A stretch of DNA of 64,000 nt from the NCBI RefSeq assembly GCF_000026545.1, contig NC_011601.1; one strand, 5' to 3'. The DNA comes from Escherichia coli O127:H6 str. E2348/69. GTDB lineage: Bacteria; Pseudomonadota; Gammaproteobacteria; Enterobacterales; Enterobacteriaceae. The notes under the pieces are model-generated. The model made no database searches. It worked only from the letters and a program-made list of their open reading frames with translations, and was not told the DNA's origin. A program made the translations under genes and the position numbers. How positions within the stretch are numbered: position 1 is the stretch's first letter; each line of letters begins with the position of its first letter. This document shows positions 1 through 7,517 of the stretch, one piece after another.

Positions 1-2
1 CA

Positions 3-182
3 GAAGAAAAAAGAATCAAGGACGAAGAAGAGCGTAGAGCAAAGGATAAAGCTCACCGGAAAGAAGTAAATAACAAAATACTTGCTGACCTTATCAAGGT
101 TGGTGCATCAGAAGATGTTGCTAAAAATATCATAACAGCCATCGCAAAAGGCGAAGTATTCGCAACAAAAATAACCTACTAA
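3..182 (+). CDS. Hypothetical phage protein, C-terminal fragment (5' end outside window)
   Basis: Open frame from window edge to TAA at 180..182; lysine/glutamate-rich translation. Confidence 0.3.
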   Translation, partial: EEKRIKDEEERRAKDKAHRKEVNNKILADLIKVGASEDVAKNIITAIAKGEVFATKITY

Positions 183-205
183 TAAACCAACATAAGGAAC
201 CACCC

Positions 206-337
206 ATGATTTACGCAATCGCGGGAGGCGCTCGCATGGGTGCCTTCCAACTAAATGAATCTTTACTTGAACGAATCACCCGTAAATTACGTGACGGATG
301 GAAAAGAGTTGAGGTCTTATTATGCGCAATGAAATAG
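206..337 (+). CDS. Small hypothetical phage protein (43 aa)
   Basis: ATG at 206 preceded by AAGGA; overlaps next ORF. Confidence 0.3.
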   Translation: MIYAIAGGARMGAFQLNESLLERITRKLRDGWKRVEVLLCAMK

Positions 338-474
338 CCATCAATCACCAGATGCTTCGTGCTGCACAGAACAAAGCAGTAATAGCCAGATTTATTGGTG
401 ATTCAAAAATGTGGCTTGAAGCAAATAAAGCGATGAAATCAGCTATCAACCTTCCGTGGTATCGCAGGAAATGA
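322..474 (+). CDS. Small hypothetical phage protein (50 aa)
   Basis: ATG 322 overlaps the end of the previous ORF; stop overlaps the next start (ATGA at 471..474). Confidence 0.3.
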   Translation: MRNEIAINHQMLRAAQNKAVIARFIGDSKMWLEANKAMKSAINLPWYRRK

Positions 475-629
475 GTTTTACAGATAACTGGTCAGACGAA
501 GAATTCATTCGTCAGATGAAAGAATTAATCGGTAACGAAGGAGATATTCATGTCACTTGCAACCACAGTGAAGGAGAGCAAGTTACAGAGACGCATGTAC
601 ACGCAGAAAGCTCTCTGGTATCGCCATAA
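471..629 (+). CDS. Small hypothetical phage protein (52 aa)
   Basis: ATG 471 preceded by AGGAA; part of a coupled small-ORF stack. Confidence 0.3.
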   Translation: MSFTDNWSDEEFIRQMKELIGNEGDIHVTCNHSEGEQVTETHVHAESSLVSP

Positions 630-728
630 TGGTGACCGCGAAGGAATGCGGGTATGCCTTAATTTGTCCCGAGTCGAAGTATTAAATCAGCGTTATTTCC
701 TTGGGCCGTGTCCATTCTGAGGTGAATT

Positions 729-1436
729 ATGGATTTGAACAAATTCGATGAGCCATTCAGCCCTGAAGATATAGAATGGAGAATACAGCAAAGCGGTAAA
801 ACACGCGATGGCAAGGTGTGGGCTATGGTGCTGGCTTATGTCACGAACAGGGCAATCATGAAACGCCTTGACGATGTTTGCGGCAAAGCAGGATGGCGCA
901 ATGAATACCGAGATATTCCCAACAACGGAGGCGTTGAATGCGGCATATCAATCAGGATTGATTCCGAATGGGTAACCAAATGGGATGCTGCTGAAAACAC
1001 GCAGGTAGAAGCCGTAAAAGGTGGTCGTTCCGGTGCAATGAAGCGCGCTGCCGTTCAGTGGGGAATCGGTCGGTATCTGTATAACCTTGAGGAAGGTTTC
1101 GCACAAACATCTCTCGATAAAAAGCAGGGATGGCACAGGGCAAAACTCAAGGATGGAACAGGATTTTACTGGCTCCCTCCATCGCTGCCGGGATGGGCAA
1201 TCCCAGCATCAGATAACAAACCATCACCAGAAAATACCAACCAGACATCTCCATCGGTTGACTGCGAACAAATCCTGAAAGACTTCAGCGATTATGCATC
1301 AACAGAAACTGACAAGAAAAAACTCATCGAGCGTTATCAGCGTGACTGGCAATTAATGGCTGGCAACGAGGAGGCACAGGCTAAATGCGTTCAGGTAATG
1401 AACATCAGAGTTAACGAACTAAAACAGGCGGCATAA
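729..1436 (+). CDS. Rad52/Sak-like single-strand annealing protein (putative)
   Basis: 235 aa; motif AMKRAAVQWGIGRYLY resembles the Rad52 N-domain signature; sits upstream of ssb in a phage recombination module; GAGG RBS. Confidence 0.5.
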   Translation: MDLNKFDEPFSPEDIEWRIQQSGKTRDGKVWAMVLAYVTNRAIMKRLDDVCGKAGWRNEYRDIPNNGGVECGISIRIDSEWVTKWDAAENTQVEAVKGGRSGAMKRAAVQWGIGRYLYNLEEGFAQTSLDKKQGWHRAKLKDGTGFYWLPPSLPGWAIPASDNKPSPENTNQTSPSVDCEQILKDFSDYASTETDKKKLIERYQRDWQLMAGNEEAQAKCVQVMNIRVNELKQAA

Positions 1437-1904
1437 ATGTCTCACTTGGACGGAATTATTAAAAGATTCGAGTCCAGCTACAAAGTTAATGAAACAACAG
1501 GTTGCTGGGAGTCTACCTATTCAAAAAACAAAGGAGGATACACAAAATTTGTAGCCTTTGGCGTAACAATGCTTTCTCATCGGGTTGCTTTTGAGCTTTA
1601 TCACTCCCCCATTCCATCTGGGAAGATGGTTTGCCACAAATGCGATAACCAATGCTGCGTTAATCCTGAACATCTCTTTTTAGGTAGCGCGCAAGAAAAC
1701 ATGGACGACAAGATAGCAAAAGGAAGGCATCGTGGAGCCAAGAAAGGTCATGCTCATCATGGTGCAAAATTAACAGAGTGGCAGGTTATAGAAATTAGGA
1801 AAAGACTCTCTGAAAAAGAGAGTCAGTACAAGATAGCAAAAGACATGGGTGTATCTCAATCAATTATAAGCAACATAAAAACTGGCAAGAGGTGGAGCAA
1901 ATGA
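1437..1904 (+). CDS. HNH endonuclease with C-terminal HTH
   Basis: Motif [23 protein letters not shown] (HNH_3-type); start abuts the stop of the upstream gene; stop overlaps ssb start. Confidence 0.7.
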
Positions 1905-2407
1905 GTTCTCGCGGGATAAATAAGGTGATTATCCTTGGTCGGGTAGGACAAGACCCGGAAGTTCGATACTCACCATCAGGAACAGCGTTCGCTAACCTGA
2001 CAATAGCCACGTCAGAACAATGGCGAGATAAAAATACTGGCGAGCAAAAGGAATTGACTGAATGGCATCGTGTTGCTGTATCCGGGAAACTGGCTGAGGT
2101 CGTGGGGCAGTATGTGAAAAAAGGTGATCAGATTTATTTCGAGGGAATGCTGAGAACCAGAAAGTGGAAAGACCAGTCAGGGCAAGACCGTTACACAACC
2201 GAGGTTCATGTCGGAATTAATGGCGTGATGCAAATGCTTGGCGGCATTGGCGACAGCAAACAACAAGCAGCCAGCAGGCAATCACAGAAGCCACAGCAGC
2301 AATCATCACCAGCACAACACAACGAACCTCCGATGGATTTTGACGACGATATACCCTTTGCACCAGTAACTCTCCCCTTCCCTCGTCACGCTATTCACGC
2401 AATTTAA
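1901..2407 (+). CDS. ssb: Single-stranded DNA-binding protein (prophage SSB) with 15-residue extension after DDDIPF
   Basis: N-terminus [25 protein letters not shown]-fold core, Q/P-rich linker and DFDDDIPF motif; ATG 1901 with AGGTGGAG RBS (the ORF track starts at GTG 1892). Confidence 0.85.
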
Positions 2408-2420
2408 TCAGGAGAAAATC

Positions 2421-2714
2421 ATGCCAGCGCCTCTGTATGGTGCGGATGACCCGCGCCGCTGTTCCGGCAATTCCGTATCGGAGGTGCTGGATAAATTCAG
2501 AAAAAACTACGATCGAATAATGTCTCTACCGCAGGAAACGAAAGAGGAAAAGGAATTTCGCCACTGTATATGGCTTGCAGAGAAAGAAGAACGCGAGCGA
2601 ATTTACCAGACATCAATCCGACCATTCCGCAAAGCCACATATACCCACTTCCCTGAAATTGACCCGCGCCTGCGTAATTACCGCTCACGTTATGGCGCTA
2701 TCAGTAATGACTGA
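2421..2714 (+). CDS. Hypothetical phage protein (97 aa)
   Basis: ORF with AGGAGA RBS directly after ssb. Confidence 0.45.
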
Positions 2715-2724
2715 GGAATTTACC

Positions 2725-2892
2725 ATGAGAGGACTTGCATACAATCCCGGCATTCTTCCGGCAGAAATGATTATTCGCCAACGCGTAAAGCCAATGCCAT
2801 CGAGAGAGGAATTGCTTAAGAGAAATTCTTCTCCGTCAGTGAATCAAAACAAATATCTGAATGCGATGTGGCGCAAAGGAGGCAACCAGTGA
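2725..2892 (+). CDS. Small hypothetical phage protein (55 aa)
   Basis: ATG 2725 with GAGGAA RBS; the track's longer 2575 start overlaps the previous gene. Confidence 0.35.
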
Positions 2893-3158
2893 GTGAGTCA
2901 AAATGCCAAATTAATGGCAACAAGATAGAACCGTGCGCGGCGTTGGCAAAATCTCTCGAATATGGAAATCCAACATTCAAGAGTAAAGGCATATTTATCC
3001 CGGAGCGTGTGAACATAAACACCGGCGAGTCATGCATAGATATTGCTCAAATTCACTCGGGGAAATATATCGGTCGTGGCGTTGCAATGTGCTTTTGCCC
3101 GTTCTGTGGTGAAAGTTTGAAAACGTGGGAAGCGGAGGCAGCCAGTGAGCAAAATTGA
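2890..3158 (+). CDS. Hypothetical phage protein with C-terminal CPFC motif
   Basis: GTG 2890 preceded by AGGAGG; start overlaps the upstream stop. Confidence 0.4.
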
Positions 3159-3783
3159 CCATCAGGCACTGCGTGAGGCGGCAGAGCAGGCAATGCATGA
3201 CGACTGGGGATTTGACGCGGACCTTTTCCATGAGCTGGTAACACCATCGATTGTGCTGGAACTGCTGGATGAACAGGAAAGAAACCAGCAATACATCAAA
3301 CGCCGCGACCAGGAGAACGAGGAGATTGCGCTTACGGTTGGGAAGCTGCGTGTTGAGCTTGAAGCAGCAGAGAACAACCTTATTGATAGTGAATGCCATG
3401 TTGCTGAACTGGAAGAAGCTCTACGCGATAAGCAGGCGTTACTTGAAGCCTCAGAAAAGCGCAACGCAAAATTACAAAGCGAGAATGCATACATCCGCAA
3501 CCGGTACAAAGAACTGGACCTATTAATCGGGAAAAACATTCTGGTCATGCAGGCTGCCATTATCGAATGGCAGGCAACTGGCGACGCTAAGAGCGGACTA
3601 GCATGGATTTATAACACACTGTTTGGCCCTGGCGAATTACCGGACGAATCTGAGAAAGATGCTCAGGCCTACTTTAATCGCAAATATGCACCGATTGACG
3701 AAAAGCTTATGGCGCTTCACAAGTGGTTTTGGGAACAAAGTGAAGCCGAGCGCGCCGCTGGCATTCGCATCAAAGGAGAGTGA
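3145..3783 (+). CDS. Coiled-coil phage protein (ea-region type)
   Basis: 212 aa; acidic, heptad-rich central segment; position in the ea region. Confidence 0.5.
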   Translation: MSKIDHQALREAAEQAMHDDWGFDADLFHELVTPSIVLELLDEQERNQQYIKRRDQENEEIALTVGKLRVELEAAENNLIDSECHVAELEEALRDKQALLEASEKRNAKLQSENAYIRNRYKELDLLIGKNILVMQAAIIEWQATGDAKSGLAWIYNTLFGPGELPDESEKDAQAYFNRKYAPIDEKLMALHKWFWEQSEAERAAGIRIKGE

Positions 3784-3784
3784 G

Positions 3785-3976
3785 ATGAACGGACAAATCT
3801 CAATTGTTCGACCGGGAGCATGTGACGATTGCGAGATACGAATGATTATTCGTCTGGCGAGGGGGAAAACAATAACTGCTCTCATTACTCCAGAAAATCT
3901 CGCATTAGCATTAACCGGAAAGTCAGACCTGCCAGTAGAGCTAAAGCTGCGAAATGTTGAGATTAAGGTGAAATAG
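3785..3976 (+). CDS. Small hypothetical phage protein (63 aa)
   Basis: ATG 3785 with GGAGAG RBS immediately after the upstream stop. Confidence 0.4.
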   Translation: MNGQISIVRPGACDDCEIRMIIRLARGKTITALITPENLALALTGKSDLPVELKLRNVEIKVK

Positions 3977-3978
3977 CT

Positions 3979-4374
3979 ATGACCACTATTACCAAAGAGC
4001 GACTGCTGACAATCAAGCAGTGGCGCGAAACATACGGACCGGGTAGCAACGTTGTACTGCCAGCAGAAGAAGCGGAAGAACTGGCACGAATTGCTCTGGC
4101 ATCGCTGGAAGTCGAGCCGATAGGTTTCCGTTGCAGGCGCAATGATAACCTTGGTGATTGGAGTTACGTATATCATCGAGAGCCAGATGATTTTGAGCGC
4201 AAACATTTAGTGATAGAGGGCATTTACGCCGCCCCTCCAGCGCAAGTAGTACCGAAAGAAAAACCAATGCCTAATCCTCTTAGCATGTACGCGGTTGATG
4301 CTGTTGCCGCTATTGCAGAGGTGAGAGGCTGGAACGCCTGCCGTGCCGCTATGCTTCAGGGGAAAGGAGACTGA
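3979..4374 (+). CDS. Hypothetical phage protein sharing an N-terminal module with the 4584..5216 gene
   Basis: 131 aa; MTTIT start and ELARIALASLEVEP block shared with the downstream paralogue. Confidence 0.5.
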   Translation: MTTITKERLLTIKQWRETYGPGSNVVLPAEEAEELARIALASLEVEPIGFRCRRNDNLGDWSYVYHREPDDFERKHLVIEGIYAAPPAQVVPKEKPMPNPLSMYAVDAVAAIAEVRGWNACRAAMLQGKGD

Positions 4375-4375
4375 T

Positions 4376-4573
4376 ATGGATAAAAACACCACTGCTTACT
4401 GGAATCTGTCACTTGATACCGAATGCCCAAAATGCGGTCACAATTTCGATCTGCTTTGTGACGCTGATTTCTGGGAGTTTTCTGGAGCTAAACAGGCATG
4501 TGAAGAAATAAAAGGTTACGAAACATGCTGTCCAGAATGTAACCATGAATTTAAAACAGATTTCGTGTATTGA
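4376..4573 (+). CDS. Small zinc-ribbon protein (CPKC ... CPEC)
   Basis: 65 aa; two CxxC pairs; AGGAGA RBS before ATG 4376. Confidence 0.45.
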   Translation: MDKNTTAYWNLSLDTECPKCGHNFDLLCDADFWEFSGAKQACEEIKGYETCCPECNHEFKTDFVY

Positions 4574-4583
4574 GGCATAACAA

Positions 4584-5216
4584 ATGACCACTATTACCAG
4601 AGAACAGGCACAGAAAATTATTGAAGCAGCCGATGAGGTTATTAGTGCGCTTGCCGGAACTAACGAGGATGTTCACCCTGGTAGCGATAACATGCTACGC
4701 CTGTGGGATGACCTGAATGACCGTTACGCGCCCCCTGAAGTTGTGCGTGAGCTGGCACGAATTGCACTGGCATCACTGGAAGCAGAGCCTGTAAGCCAAA
4801 CTTACAACTTGCCAGAATTAATCGAAGGGATGGAAGTTTCCATTGATGTAAGCACTTGTGATGCTGATTTAGGTAATCGCTATTTCGGTACCGTCACCGA
4901 GGCGTTAGAACTTGATACAGCCAAGAATGGTTACATCCTCCTAGTTCAGGACGCAGAGCCAAACTTCGATGTAAATGGCAACTCTCCGGTAATTCCGGGC
5001 GGTTGGATAAGCTGTAGTGAGCGAATGCCGGATAGCAAAACAGCCGTTCTTGTTGCCAGGGAGTTTGACAGGAAAGGTGACTGGCGAATGAAATGGGCGA
5101 CTTACATCCCGGGGCATCCTGACGCTAATGATGGGTGGGTAATACCTGGTGCGTCGTGGATACCATCACACTGGATGCCGCTACCAGAACCGCCGCAGGA
5201 GGTTAACCATGGCTAA
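4584..5216 (+). CDS. Phage protein with DUF551-like C-terminal domain
   Basis: 210 aa; N-terminal module paralogous to 3979..4374; C-terminal W-rich segment (WISCSERMP ... WIPSHWMPLPEPP). Confidence 0.55.
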   Translation: MTTITREQAQKIIEAADEVISALAGTNEDVHPGSDNMLRLWDDLNDRYAPPEVVRELARIALASLEAEPVSQTYNLPELIEGMEVSIDVSTCDADLGNRYFGTVTEALELDTAKNGYILLVQDAEPNFDVNGNSPVIPGGWISCSERMPDSKTAVLVAREFDRKGDWRMKWATYIPGHPDANDGWVIPGASWIPSHWMPLPEPPQEVNHG

Positions 5217-5316
5217 CCTGCAACTTGCCGTCAAAGGTGAATAACAATCCTCGCACTCGCGGGGATTTCTTTTATCTGAACTCGCTACGGCGAGTTTTGT
5301 TTTATGGAGATGATAA

Positions 5317-5484
5317 ATGCACTTCCGAGTCACAGGTGAATGGAATGGAGAACCATTCAACAGAGTTATCGAAGCGGAGAACATCAACGACTGCTATGAC
5401 CACTGGATGCTGTGGGCGCAGATAGCACATGCAGACGTAACCAATATTCGAATTGAAGAACTGAAAGAACACCAAGCCGCCTGA
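5317..5484 (+). CDS. Small hypothetical phage protein (55 aa)
   Basis: ATG 5317 with GGAGA RBS; stop lies in the loop of a terminator hairpin. Confidence 0.35.
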   Translation: MHFRVTGEWNGEPFNRVIEAENINDCYDHWMLWAQIAHADVTNIRIEELKEHQAA

Positions 5485-5496
5485 TGGCGGTTTTTT
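5477..5496 (+). terminator. Rho-independent terminator upstream of torI
   Basis: CCGCC-TGAT-GGCGG hairpin followed by TTTTTT. Confidence 0.5.
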
Positions 5497-5541
5497 ATTA
5501 CCTGATTTGCAGGTTCGATTCCCTATTCGGAGATAGCACTC

Positions 5542-5742
5542 ATGCAACACGAATTACAGCCTGATTCACTGGTTGATTTGAAATTCATCATGGCCGATAC
5601 TGGCTTCGGTAAAACCTTCATCTATGACCGGATTAAGTCCGGCGACCTGCCAAAAGCCAAAGTTATCCACGGGCGAGCAAGATGGTTATATCGTGACCAT
5701 TGTGAATTCAAAAATAAGCTCTTAAGCCGCGCCAATGGGTAA
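5542..5742 (+). CDS. torI: Prophage excisionase / recombination directionality factor TorI
   Basis: 66 aa translation recognised as TorI (MQHELQPDSLVDLKFIMADTGFGKTFIYDRIKSGDLPKA...); lies next to the att core. Confidence 0.9.
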   Translation: MQHELQPDSLVDLKFIMADTGFGKTFIYDRIKSGDLPKAKVIHGRARWLYRDHCEFKNKLLSRANG

Positions 5743-5814
5743 AATAGCGGGTAAAATATTTCTCACATCTAAAAAACTCCATTCCAATCAATCCCCTGCC
5801 GCTTCAAGTAGATG

Positions 5815-5830
5815 TCTGCAGGGGACACCA
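5815..5830 (+). repeat. Prophage attR core (copy of the tRNA-Arg argW 3' end)
   Basis: TCTGCAGGGGACACCA matches the 3' end of argW; located 73 bp downstream of torI. Confidence 0.7.
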
Positions 5831-6269
5831 GATACCCTTCAAACGATATCTACCTTCACCCCGTAAAAGATAAGTTTGGCAGCACATTTGCCCTATCTAC
5901 TCATTTTTCCTGCAACAGGTTGAAATCTCAACACGGTCAGAAAACGCTGATGACTAAACAGCCCTGGGCCGGGCGATGTAACCATCACACACAATCCTGA
6001 TCGCGAAATATGGCGTGACTTGATACTTCACTCCACAATGCTTTCCTTGATGAATTCGCAGGCCCGTGATACACGGGACAGGTCGCTGAATTACGACAAT
6101 GCCCTGGAAATCAGCGAGCCGTGTATCCAGAGTACATTTGAGCGACTGTACCAGAACATGAATGAGGCGTTTGGATTAGGCGATTATTAGCAGGGCTAAG
6201 CATTTTGGTATTATTATTTTCCGGTTGAGGGATATAGAGCTATCGACAACAACCGGAAAAAGTTTACGT

Positions 6270-7517
6270 TTATATTGCTGAAGGTACTGGCGTTTCCATC
6301 ACTATTTGCTCACGTTTTTTACTCAGGAAGAAAATGCCAAATAGCAACATCAGGCAGACAATACCCGAAATTGCGAAAAAAACCGTCTGGTAGCCTGCGT
6401 GGTCAAAGAGTATCCCAGTCGGCGTTGAAAGCAGCACAATCCCCAACGAACTGGCAATTTGAAAACCAATCAGAAAGATCGTCGACGACAGGCGCTTATC
6501 AAAATTTGCCACGCTGTATTTGAAGACGGATATGACACAAAGTGGAACCTCAATGGCATGTAACAGCTTCACTAATGAAATAATCCAGGGGTTAACGAAT
6601 AGCGCGCAGGAAAGGATACGCAACGCCATAATCACAACACCGATAAGTAATGCATTTTTTGGCCCTACCCGATTCACAAAGAAAGGAATAATCGCCATGC
6701 ACAGCGCTTCGAGTACCACCTGGAATGAGTTGAGATAACCATACAGGCGCGTTCCTACATCGTGTGATTCGAATAAACCTGCATAAAAGACAGGAAAGAG
6801 TTGTTGATCAAAAATGTTATAGAAAGACCACGTCCCCACAATAAATATGACGAAAACCCAGAAGTTTCGATCCTTGAAAACTGCGATAAAATCCTCTTTT
6901 TTTACCCCTCCCGCATCCGCCGCTATGCACTGGTGATCCTTATCTTTAAAACGCATGTTGATCATCATAAATACAGCGCCAAATAGCGAGACCAACCAGA
7001 AGTTGATATGGGGACTGATACTAAAAAATATACCGGCAAAGAACGCGCCAATAGCATAGCCAAAAGATCCCCAGGCGCGCGCTGTTCCATATTCGAAATG
7101 AAAATTTCGCGCCATTTTTTCGGTGAAGCTGTCAAGCAAACCGCATCCCGCCAGATACCCCAGGCCAAAAAAGAGCGCCCCCAGAATTAGACCTGCAGAA
7201 AAATTGCTTTGCAGTAACGGTTCATAAACGTAAATCATAAACGGTCCGGTCAAGACCAGAATGAAACTCATACACCAGATGAGCGGTTTCTTCAGACCGA
7301 GTTTATCCTGAACGATGCCGTAGAACATCATAAATAGAATGCTGGTAAACTGGTTGACCGAATAAAGTGTACCTAATTCCGTCCCTGTTAATCCTAGATG
7401 TCCTTTCAGCCAAATAGCGTATAATGACCACCACAGCGACCAGGAAATAAAAAAGAGAAATGAGTAACTGGATGCAAAACGATAGTACGCATTTCTGAAT
7501 GGAATATTCAGTGCCAT
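6270..7517 (-). CDS. cscB: Sucrose:H+ symporter (oligosaccharide:H+ symporter family)
   Basis: 415 aa, 12-TMS-like; N-terminus MALNIPFRNAYYRFASSYSF recognised as CscB. Confidence 0.9.
   Translation of the reverse strand: MALNIPFRNAYYRFASSYSFLFFISWSLWWSLYAIWLKGHLGLTGTELGTLYSVNQFTSILFMMFYGIVQDKLGLKKPLIWCMSFILVLTGPFMIYVYEPLLQSNFSAGLILGALFFGLGYLAGCGLLDSFTEKMARNFHFEYGTARAWGSFGYAIGAFFAGIFFSISPHINFWLVSLFGAVFMMINMRFKDKDHQCIAADAGGVKKEDFIAVFKDRNFWVFVIFIVGTWSFYNIFDQQLFPVFYAGLFESHDVGTRLYGYLNSFQVVLEALCMAIIPFFVNRVGPKNALLIGVVIMALRILSCALFVNPWIISLVKLLHAIEVPLCVISVFKYSVANFDKRLSSTIFLIGFQIASSLGIVLLSTPTGILFDHAGYQTVFFAISGIVCLMLLFGIFFLSKKREQIVMETPVPSAI

Follow-up and report, generated by a model that had tools for sequence, protein, structure and literature searches.

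An HNH gene seated in the first ssb codons of a lambdoid recombination module of Escherichia coli E2348/69 is probably a homing cassette

In a prophage of Escherichia coli O127:H6 str. E2348/69, a gene for a 155-aa HNH endonuclease lies, without a gap, between the gene for a Rad52-like annealing protein and a phage ssb gene. Does it belong to the recombination module, or is it a mobile nuclease gene that has settled there? The initial annotation recognised that HNH genes are often selfish insertions, and took the tight coupling of the three genes as a sign that this one might be a functional partner of the recombination proteins. We addressed the question from the window, by which we mean the whole 64,000-nt stretch of contig NC_011601.1 that was analysed, and from related loci in bacterial and viral genomes.

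Positions 1-6000 of the window hold the early-left operon of a lambdoid, P22-like prophage, which includes the following genes:

206-337, plus strand: cIII
322-474, plus strand: kil, the upstream neighbour of the three-gene module
729-1436, plus strand: Rad52/Rad22-family annealing protein, 235 aa (Pfam PF04098; PHROG 1097)
1437-1904, plus strand: HNH_3 (His-Me finger) endonuclease, 155 aa, with a C-terminal helix-turn-helix (Pfam HNH_3)
1901-2407, plus strand: phage ssb, 168 aa (Pfam SSB, E 2e-36; translation)
2421-2714, plus strand: abc2, anti-RecBCD, the last canonical member of the Rec module (Pfam PF11043, E 6e-64)

Small early genes follow abc2, then a TorI/excisionase-like gene (5542-5742, plus strand), and E. 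coli chromosomal genes start at ~6.2 kb. No plus-strand promoter-like or terminator-like site was found within 729-2407, consistent with a single operon. The open reading frame listing and the sequence confirm the three genes proposed for 729-2407, and both junctions are as first described. The HNH start abuts the upstream stop (GCATAA followed directly by ATG, with TAA at 1434-1436 and ATG at 1437), and the HNH stop overlaps the ssb start (caaATGAgt, with the ssb ATG at 1901 and the HNH TGA at 1902-1904). The listing also offers a longer, GTG-start ssb from 1892; the ATG at 1901 (MSSRG...) is used in every relative. The Rad52-type gene, ssb and abc2 are a genuine lambdoid Rec module.

Pfam bears out the Rad52-like assignment of the 235-aa protein, placing it in Rad52_Rad22 and not in an unrelated family (E 7e-26; 91.4 bits against a cut-off of 20.3). 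The match covers residues 4-136, the N-terminal annealing core, and model positions 7-153 of 153; the motif that had been compared to the Rad52 N-domain, GAMKRAAVQWGIGRYLYN, occupies residues 102-119. The RefSeq name agrees with this naming, and PHROG 1097 is called 'Erf-like' in PHROGs. The C-terminal ~58 aa (nt ~1257-1433), which terminate in ELKQAA before the stop codon, correspond to a domain common to P22-type Erf proteins and align with the ERF-core protein of a related locus, L007. These alignments make the annealing protein a chimera, with a Rad52 core joined to a P22 Erf-type C-terminal domain; a 'domain swap' in Erf has been described (PMC2629481). A PDB sequence search with the protein gave no match at E <= 0.1, and its predicted role in ssDNA annealing is the family assignment from Pfam.

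The third gene encodes SSB, as proposed (PF00436, E 1.7e-36), with the OB-fold domain at residues 6-104. In SSB proteins, the free terminal Phe of the acidic tip binds partner proteins. Here the acidic motif, DFDDDIPF, is followed by a 15-aa extension (nt 2360-2404), and ...DDDIPF is thus not at the extreme C-terminus. The module resembles both Sak (Rad52-like)/SSB pairs and P22 Erf/Abc modules in having a Rad52 core followed by a phage SSB and abc2 in the early-left operon; unlike these, it has a Rad52-Erf chimera and an SSB tip that is not C-terminal.

The family of the 155-aa protein was also correctly named: it matches HNH_3 (PF13392) with E 4e-13 and 49.3 bits, against a cut-off of 24.8. 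A weak Pfam match to HTH_38 covers residues 111-146. Across 50 homologues, C23, H67, C69, D70, C74, N76, H79 and N88 are invariant and C66 is nearly so (at least 90%); the catalytic and zinc residues are conserved and the protein is intact. Its AlphaFold (AF2) model has a pLDDT of 90.4. In a Foldseek search of the PDB, the best folds were the homing endonucleases I-HmuI and I-PpoI, with modest scores; the top match, 1u3e (I-HmuI), extends over 173 columns at a probability of 0.98 but is weak (E 5e-3, TM 0.36). A PDB sequence search returned nothing significant. The protein is probably a free-standing homing endonuclease. The GC content of its gene is 40.6%, against 47.7-49.3% in the flanking genes. 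Between HNH lineages, pN is 0.12-0.19 and pS 0.70-0.87, with synonymous sites saturated, and omega is ~0.07 where computable, values that indicate strong purifying selection on the protein. Such selection, together with long retention beside ssb, is also expected of a beneficial accessory gene.

Comparison with HNH-less phages delimits the insertion. In HK75, Sf6 and mEp235, the stop of the Rad52 gene abuts the ssb ATG with no gene between them, the flanks are 97-98% identical, and the HK75-type junction reads ...CAGGCGGCATAAATGGCAAGCAGAGGCGTAAATAAGGTGAT.... Identity between the window and these empty sites runs through ...CAGGCGGCATAAATG and is back at TAAATAAGGTGAT. The junction comprises these features:

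1425-1439, plus strand: left junction CAGGCGGCATAA-ATG; its ATG starts the HNH gene in the window and ssb in relatives without the HNH gene
1440-1916, plus strand: mobile cassette, 477 nt replacing 13 nt (GCAAGCAGAGGCG) of HNH-less alleles (junction alignments)
1889-1897, plus strand: Shine-Dalgarno-like GAGGTGGAG within the last HNH codons (KRWSK), read from the sequence
1904-1916, plus strand: rewritten ssb codons 2-6, AGT TCT CGC GGG A (junction comparison)

The left junction is the same in the window, HK75, Sf6, mEp235 and the ERF-type loci L007 and L009-L011; in L008 it is one base off (GCG for GCA). Since the stop of the annealing-protein gene abuts the ssb ATG in the HNH-less relatives, the HNH gene here uses what is the ssb start codon of other phages. 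The cassette consists of the HNH reading frame plus the rewritten ssb codons 2-6, and the alignments show that it sits inside the first ssb codons, having taken over the old ssb start codon together with its coupling to the stop of the preceding gene. Upstream of the new ssb ATG, GAGGTGGAG is separated from it by 3 nt (1898-1900) and is the putative ribosome-binding site for ssb; an analogous AAGGTGG, encoded by the last HNH codons (KRW...), precedes ssb in all HNH lineages. The 3' end of the cassette carries both this new ribosome-binding site, whose function we infer, and rewritten ssb codons 1-6, which leaves ssb intact and coupled.

The rewriting is extensive in the DNA and slight in the protein. 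The ssb start reads ATG AGT TCT CGC GGG ATA here and ATG GCA AGC AGA GGC GTA in HNH-less phages, so that 10 of 13 bases in codons 2-6 are changed, including a switch between two serine codon families, and the protein goes only from MASRGV to MSSRGI. The rewritten codons are presumably a disrupted target that gives immunity. Some I-HmuI-type enzymes cut carrier as well as non-carrier DNA, and the codons may accordingly be a co-converted remnant of the donor and not an immunity device.

How often is the gene present at this site? Among 5426 complete E. coli genomes, about 406 have a Rad52-ssb junction of this kind, the Rad52 gene is joined directly to ssb in about 140-220, and 40 carry the HNH gene. 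With a probe that covers the end of the HNH gene and the start of ssb, these 40 genomes matched from the HNH gene onward. In the next class, of 141 genomes, the match began only at window position 1917; these genomes have the same ssb 5' region with no HNH gene. The exact 41-nt empty site is found in at least 120 IMG/VR viral contigs. The rewritten ssb start occurs together with the HNH gene in all 40 E. coli carriers and with a full-length upstream HNH gene in 28 of 28 IMG/VR contigs, and neither the probed complete E. coli genomes nor IMG/VR contained an HNH-less allele with the rewritten start. A truncated HNH gene in strain Z0117EC0133, considered as a case of gradual decay, is instead the product of a prophage rearrangement. 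In 50,697 phage records, megablast with the HNH DNA gave no near match, the closest relative among sequenced phages is from a Vibrio phage (61% protein identity), and a peptide-pattern scan of one genome per species, which are representative genomes without the prophage, found no relative.

The initial annotation had proposed that absence of the gene from all relatives, with no flanking homology, would mark a simple selfish insertion. In the comparison, the gene is absent from most near-identical modules, which speaks against partnership, and the flanking homology is intact. Most modules with a 97-99% identical Rad52 gene lack it, and the two genes do not co-occur obligately.

We then compared 23 carrier with 113 non-carrier loci. 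In the Rad52 gene, diversity was 0.0219 within carriers (pi++), 0.0210 within non-carriers (pi--) and 0.0225 between them (dxy), and 11 of the 23 carriers had a non-carrier as their nearest neighbour. Neither the 708 nt upstream nor ssb nt 17-500 contained a near-fixed difference between the groups. Fixed differences were confined to 10 positions in ssb nt 4-16, a stretch that is fixed by construction among the non-carriers, which were picked by an exact 41-mer; the spanning-probe result supports the linkage independently. A gradient of reduced diversity beside the cassette, as a co-conversion tract would leave, was looked for, and none extended beyond the 13 rewritten bases. Flat flank diversity with fixed differences only in ssb nt 4-16 describes a sharply bounded unit, and on either flank the carriers are, by these measures, not a clade. 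Lambdoid phages recombine freely, and ordinary recombination could also erase flank linkage.

The cassette itself is far more uniform than its surroundings. Among 25 carrier loci the HNH gene differs on average by 0.2-0.8% and the Rad52 gene typically by about 2-2.5%; HNH identity stays at 99.4-100% even where the Rad52 genes of the backgrounds are about 2-3% apart. The carrier ssb genes fall into two allele types differing by 25-30%, the HK75 type and, in loci L006, L028 and L030, the Sf6 type. Diversity of the HNH gene is about 3- to 10-fold below that of the flanks, which suggests that the cassette spread across these backgrounds more recently than the backgrounds diverged. One locus, L017, had appeared to hold a 99% identical HNH gene behind another annealing protein; it was dropped, as that gene is the same Rad52 gene with a frameshift.

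More distant relatives keep the position next to ssb. Homologues of 73-74% identity turned up in a database search in Cronobacter, Citrobacter and other Enterobacteriaceae. All are placed between ssb and the gene for an annealing protein, and all abut the upstream stop and overlap the ssb start in ATGA, as in the window; the upstream gene has an ERF core in some loci and a Rad52 core in others. Vibrio phage 1.079.O, a Shewanella prophage and metagenomic contigs have relatives of 51-61% identity, again directly upstream of ssb, and the genes before these relatives encode ERF, RdgC/FtsK-gamma, Sipho_Gp157 or unknown proteins. All eight further lineages examined (51-74%) thus lie directly upstream of ssb with a 4-8 nt start overlap. 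In the loci compared, the constant neighbour of the HNH clade is ssb and not the annealing protein, and by its placement the whole clade, down to about 51% identity, is evidently specialised on the conserved 5' end of ssb. Beyond it, a 46% relative is located among structural genes and not beside ssb, and ES18 gp47, a 34%-identical paralogue, lies between ssb and abc2. Paralogues in different slots are typical of mobile nuclease genes.

The Vibrio phages are an independent case and retain a trace of the insertion. Phages 1.003.O and 1.067.O have no HNH gene, and their ERF and ssb genes are 95-96% identical to those of 1.079.O. In 1.079.O a remnant upstream preserves the opening 14 nt of the original ssb, ATGGCATCACGCGG. 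Then come inserted DNA, the HNH gene and ATGAGTAGTAGAGGGATA, a new start for ssb (MSSRGI), and beyond it identity to the HNH-less phages returns. The remnant and the new start together place the insertion point inside the first ssb codons and indicate that the cassette brings its own replacement.

We therefore favour, with good though not full confidence, the explanation that the 155-aa protein comes from a free-standing HNH homing cassette, probably of the I-HmuI-like kind, and is not a dedicated recombination subunit. Two marks of a homing gene are present: the gene is found or missing at one precise site between conserved flanks, in E. coli as in Vibrio phages, and the site of the empty allele, the predicted target, is split and altered in every carrier. 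Upon induction, or co-infection with an HNH-less relative, the enzyme would be made from the early-left operon alongside the recombination proteins. It would recognise the un-rewritten junction (...CAGGCGGCATAAATGGCAAGCAGAGGCGTAAATAAGG...), as the sequence comparison suggests, and nick or cut it, and repair from the HNH-bearing genome would copy the cassette into the relative. The carrier's own site would be immune because the target is split and 10 of its 13 bases are changed. The tight coupling, from which a partnership had been deduced, is more readily understood as a means by which the cassette leaves ssb expression undisturbed.

Known elements of this kind offer close parallels. Like I-HmuI of SPO1 and the I-HmuI-like genes of Skunavirus (PMC12724721), the protein is a small HNH/His-Me finger nuclease with a C-terminal HTH, occurs sporadically among close relatives and has relatives that group by insertion site; the lactococcal Skunavirus genes also group by insertion site and cause marker exclusion (PMC12724721). 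It differs from I-HmuI in sequence (17% identity, with the weak fold score given above) and in not lying in an intron, and its predicted target, in temperate lambdoid and other prophages, is the point where ssb begins. With T4-type free-standing genes such as SegF and MobE it shares a position between, or at the edge of, conserved genes, absence from relatives and, in the carrier, sequence differences at the presumed target. The Seg enzymes, though, are of the GIY-YIG type, and T4-type elements lie in intergenic gaps with their own signals. The cassette described here differs in being gap-free, in reusing the start codon of the host gene and in carrying rewritten first codons. By its arrangement it is a cassette of a known type, free-standing homing, with an unusually neat and well-delimited presumptive target.

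An alternative that we consider unlikely is that the gene is passive cargo, or serves another purpose such as a nuclease against competing phages or host DNA, and has moved by general homologous recombination only, with no site-specific cleavage at the ssb junction. Lambdoid genomes are mosaics with conserved junction sequences, and flank shuffling alone could erase linkage. E2348/69 itself has a second HNH copy, in a prophage that has in common with this one a 4.4-kb block, 99.9% identical and far larger than the cassette; we had considered this copy as direct evidence of homing, for which a shared block of that size is not diagnostic. Free recombination alone does not account for the constant point of insertion, the replacement start or the Vibrio remnant. 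It fails on the use of one ssb-codon position in unrelated backgrounds (Rad52-type in E. coli, ERF-type in Cronobacter, Vibrio, Shewanella), on the ever-present replacement ssb start with the remnant in 1.079.O, and on the low diversity of the HNH gene relative to its flanks.

Membership in the Rec module, with the nuclease making nicks or ends for the Rad52-type protein and SSB, we regard as a shade more doubtful. It is the view of a 2025 survey of lambdoid Rec modules, in which tight packing was taken as a sign that the HNH gene is a legitimate member (PMC12315714), and it fits the close packing and translational coupling of the gene within the module, the strong purifying selection on it and the placement of its 51-100% relatives, which in every context examined adjoin ssb and usually an annealing-protein gene too. 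Yet roughly 80-90% of near-identical modules have no HNH gene, and their Rad52-ssb junctions are intact and coupled; carriers form no clade on either flank; and the ssb position is kept while the upstream partner varies freely. Rewriting ssb codons, as this sharply bounded, low-diversity cassette does, would serve no purpose for a cooperating nuclease, and the 34% paralogue of ES18 occupies a different slot. ES18 gp47 and Sf6 gp26 (PMC12315714) are found in the same operon as our gene, and gp47 is also an HNH_3 protein with an HTH. Both lie behind ssb, between it and abc2; gp47, unlike the gene studied here, is separated from each of its neighbours by an ordinary intergenic gap, and gp26 has no Pfam match. 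The functional partnership suggested for the HNH gene is thus not supported, though the gene may still make an accessory contribution to recombination. Two further models do not apply: HK97 gp74-type packaging HNH genes lie by terminase or portal genes, and this one lies between kil and abc2, and an obligate nuclease of the lambda Exo-Beta type would keep a constant annealing partner, which this gene lacks.

The homing explanation bears on how such modules are read. The locus is a testable counter-example in which tight packing is a property of the insertion and not proof that an HNH gene belongs to the module, and, with a known empty site, a known carrier site of 13 rewritten bases and many natural backgrounds, it lends itself well to the study of intronless homing in temperate phages. 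For recombineering, it shows which reading frame can be omitted from Rad52/SSB cassettes. With the ES18 gene on the far side, both ends of phage ssb genes appear as hot-spots for nuclease-gene insertion.

Finally, the HNH clade might be more than a parasite, cutting the ssb of a rival prophage or phage, perhaps even of the host, just as Rad52, SSB and Abc2 are made; we hold this to be improbable. If true, cutting ssb would be a competitive weapon, or a trigger of recombination-dependent replication for the carrier phage. The idea is speculative and starts from the near-universal, MASRGVNKV-coding ssb start and its likeness to the host gene: the E. coli chromosomal ssb begins ATGGCCAGCAGAGGCG... 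in 5424 of 5426 genomes, one base from the 13-nt block that carriers have rewritten.

The canonical tip of the window SSB is not terminal: DFDDDIPF is followed by 15 further residues. This extension is common to the window, HK75, mEp235, and L006 (an HNH carrier with an Sf6-type ssb), and a diverged copy is present in L007, a locus with an ERF-core annealing protein. In phage Sf6, the ssb stop codon lies directly after ...DIPF, and the following gene is gp26, a zinc-ribbon HNH-like "endonuclease" whose C-terminal end carries the same tail residues as the extended SSB.

Window 2360-2404, ssb 3' end: 15-residue C-terminal extension of the SSB, from translation
L002 (Sf6) 3421-3900: ssb 3' end and gp26 region

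From the sequence, a second nuclease cassette in Sf6 appears to be located exactly at the DIPF/extension point of ssb, and for this reason the ssb 3' end appears to be a second insertion hot-spot.

The contents of the slot between ssb and the anti-RecBCD gene abc2 vary among loci. The window and HK75 have nothing there, while mEp235 and most Cronobacter/Citrobacter-type loci encode an Rv2179c-like 3'-5' exonuclease. The ES18 slot holds an HNH gene, whereas that of Sf6 holds a nuclease of another kind than either of these.

L003 (mEp235) 3133-3681; L007-L015 about 4435-5097: Rv2179c-like 3'-5' exonuclease in the slot

On the other side of ssb, annealing proteins with a Rad52 core and those with an ERF core are homologous over their C-terminal ~58 aa, a domain whose last residues before the stop are ELKQAA.

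Window 1257-1433; L007 2877-3500: C-terminal domain of annealing proteins

Because this domain is common to both, the junction DNA before ssb is identical in the two kinds of module. This sharing of one C-terminal domain by two kinds of core corresponds to the Erf "domain swap" already described (PMC2629481).

An HNH protein identical to that of the window is encoded by a second lambdoid prophage in E2348/69 (L185, about 3.436 Mb). The two prophages have in common a 4.4-kb block, 99.9% identical, that extends from 966 bp upstream of HNH to past a DUF551 gene; the DNA upstream of the block is unrelated. In E. coli Z0117EC0133 (L045 1341-1544), a 5'-truncated HNH gene (67 aa, annotated hypothetical) is still upstream of an ssb with the rewritten start, in which codons 2-6 are altered. 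Since it adjoins virion-gene fragments, this locus is a rearranged prophage rather than an intact module.

At the prophage end in the window (5542-6270), which also contains a DUF4942 fragment, no integrase gene was found ahead of the chromosomal MFS transporter gene; this absence suggests that the attachment end has decayed or been rearranged.

Window 5542-5742: TorI/excisionase-like gene, at the prophage end
Window 6270-7517, minus strand: chromosomal MFS transporter gene

A 41-nt direct repeat (window 4078-4118 and 4749-4789; copies 88% identical) falls in two adjacent ORFs, 3979-4374 and 4584-5216. Both start with MTTIT(K/R)E and contain ELARIALASLE(V/A)EP, so their N-terminal modules look paralogous.
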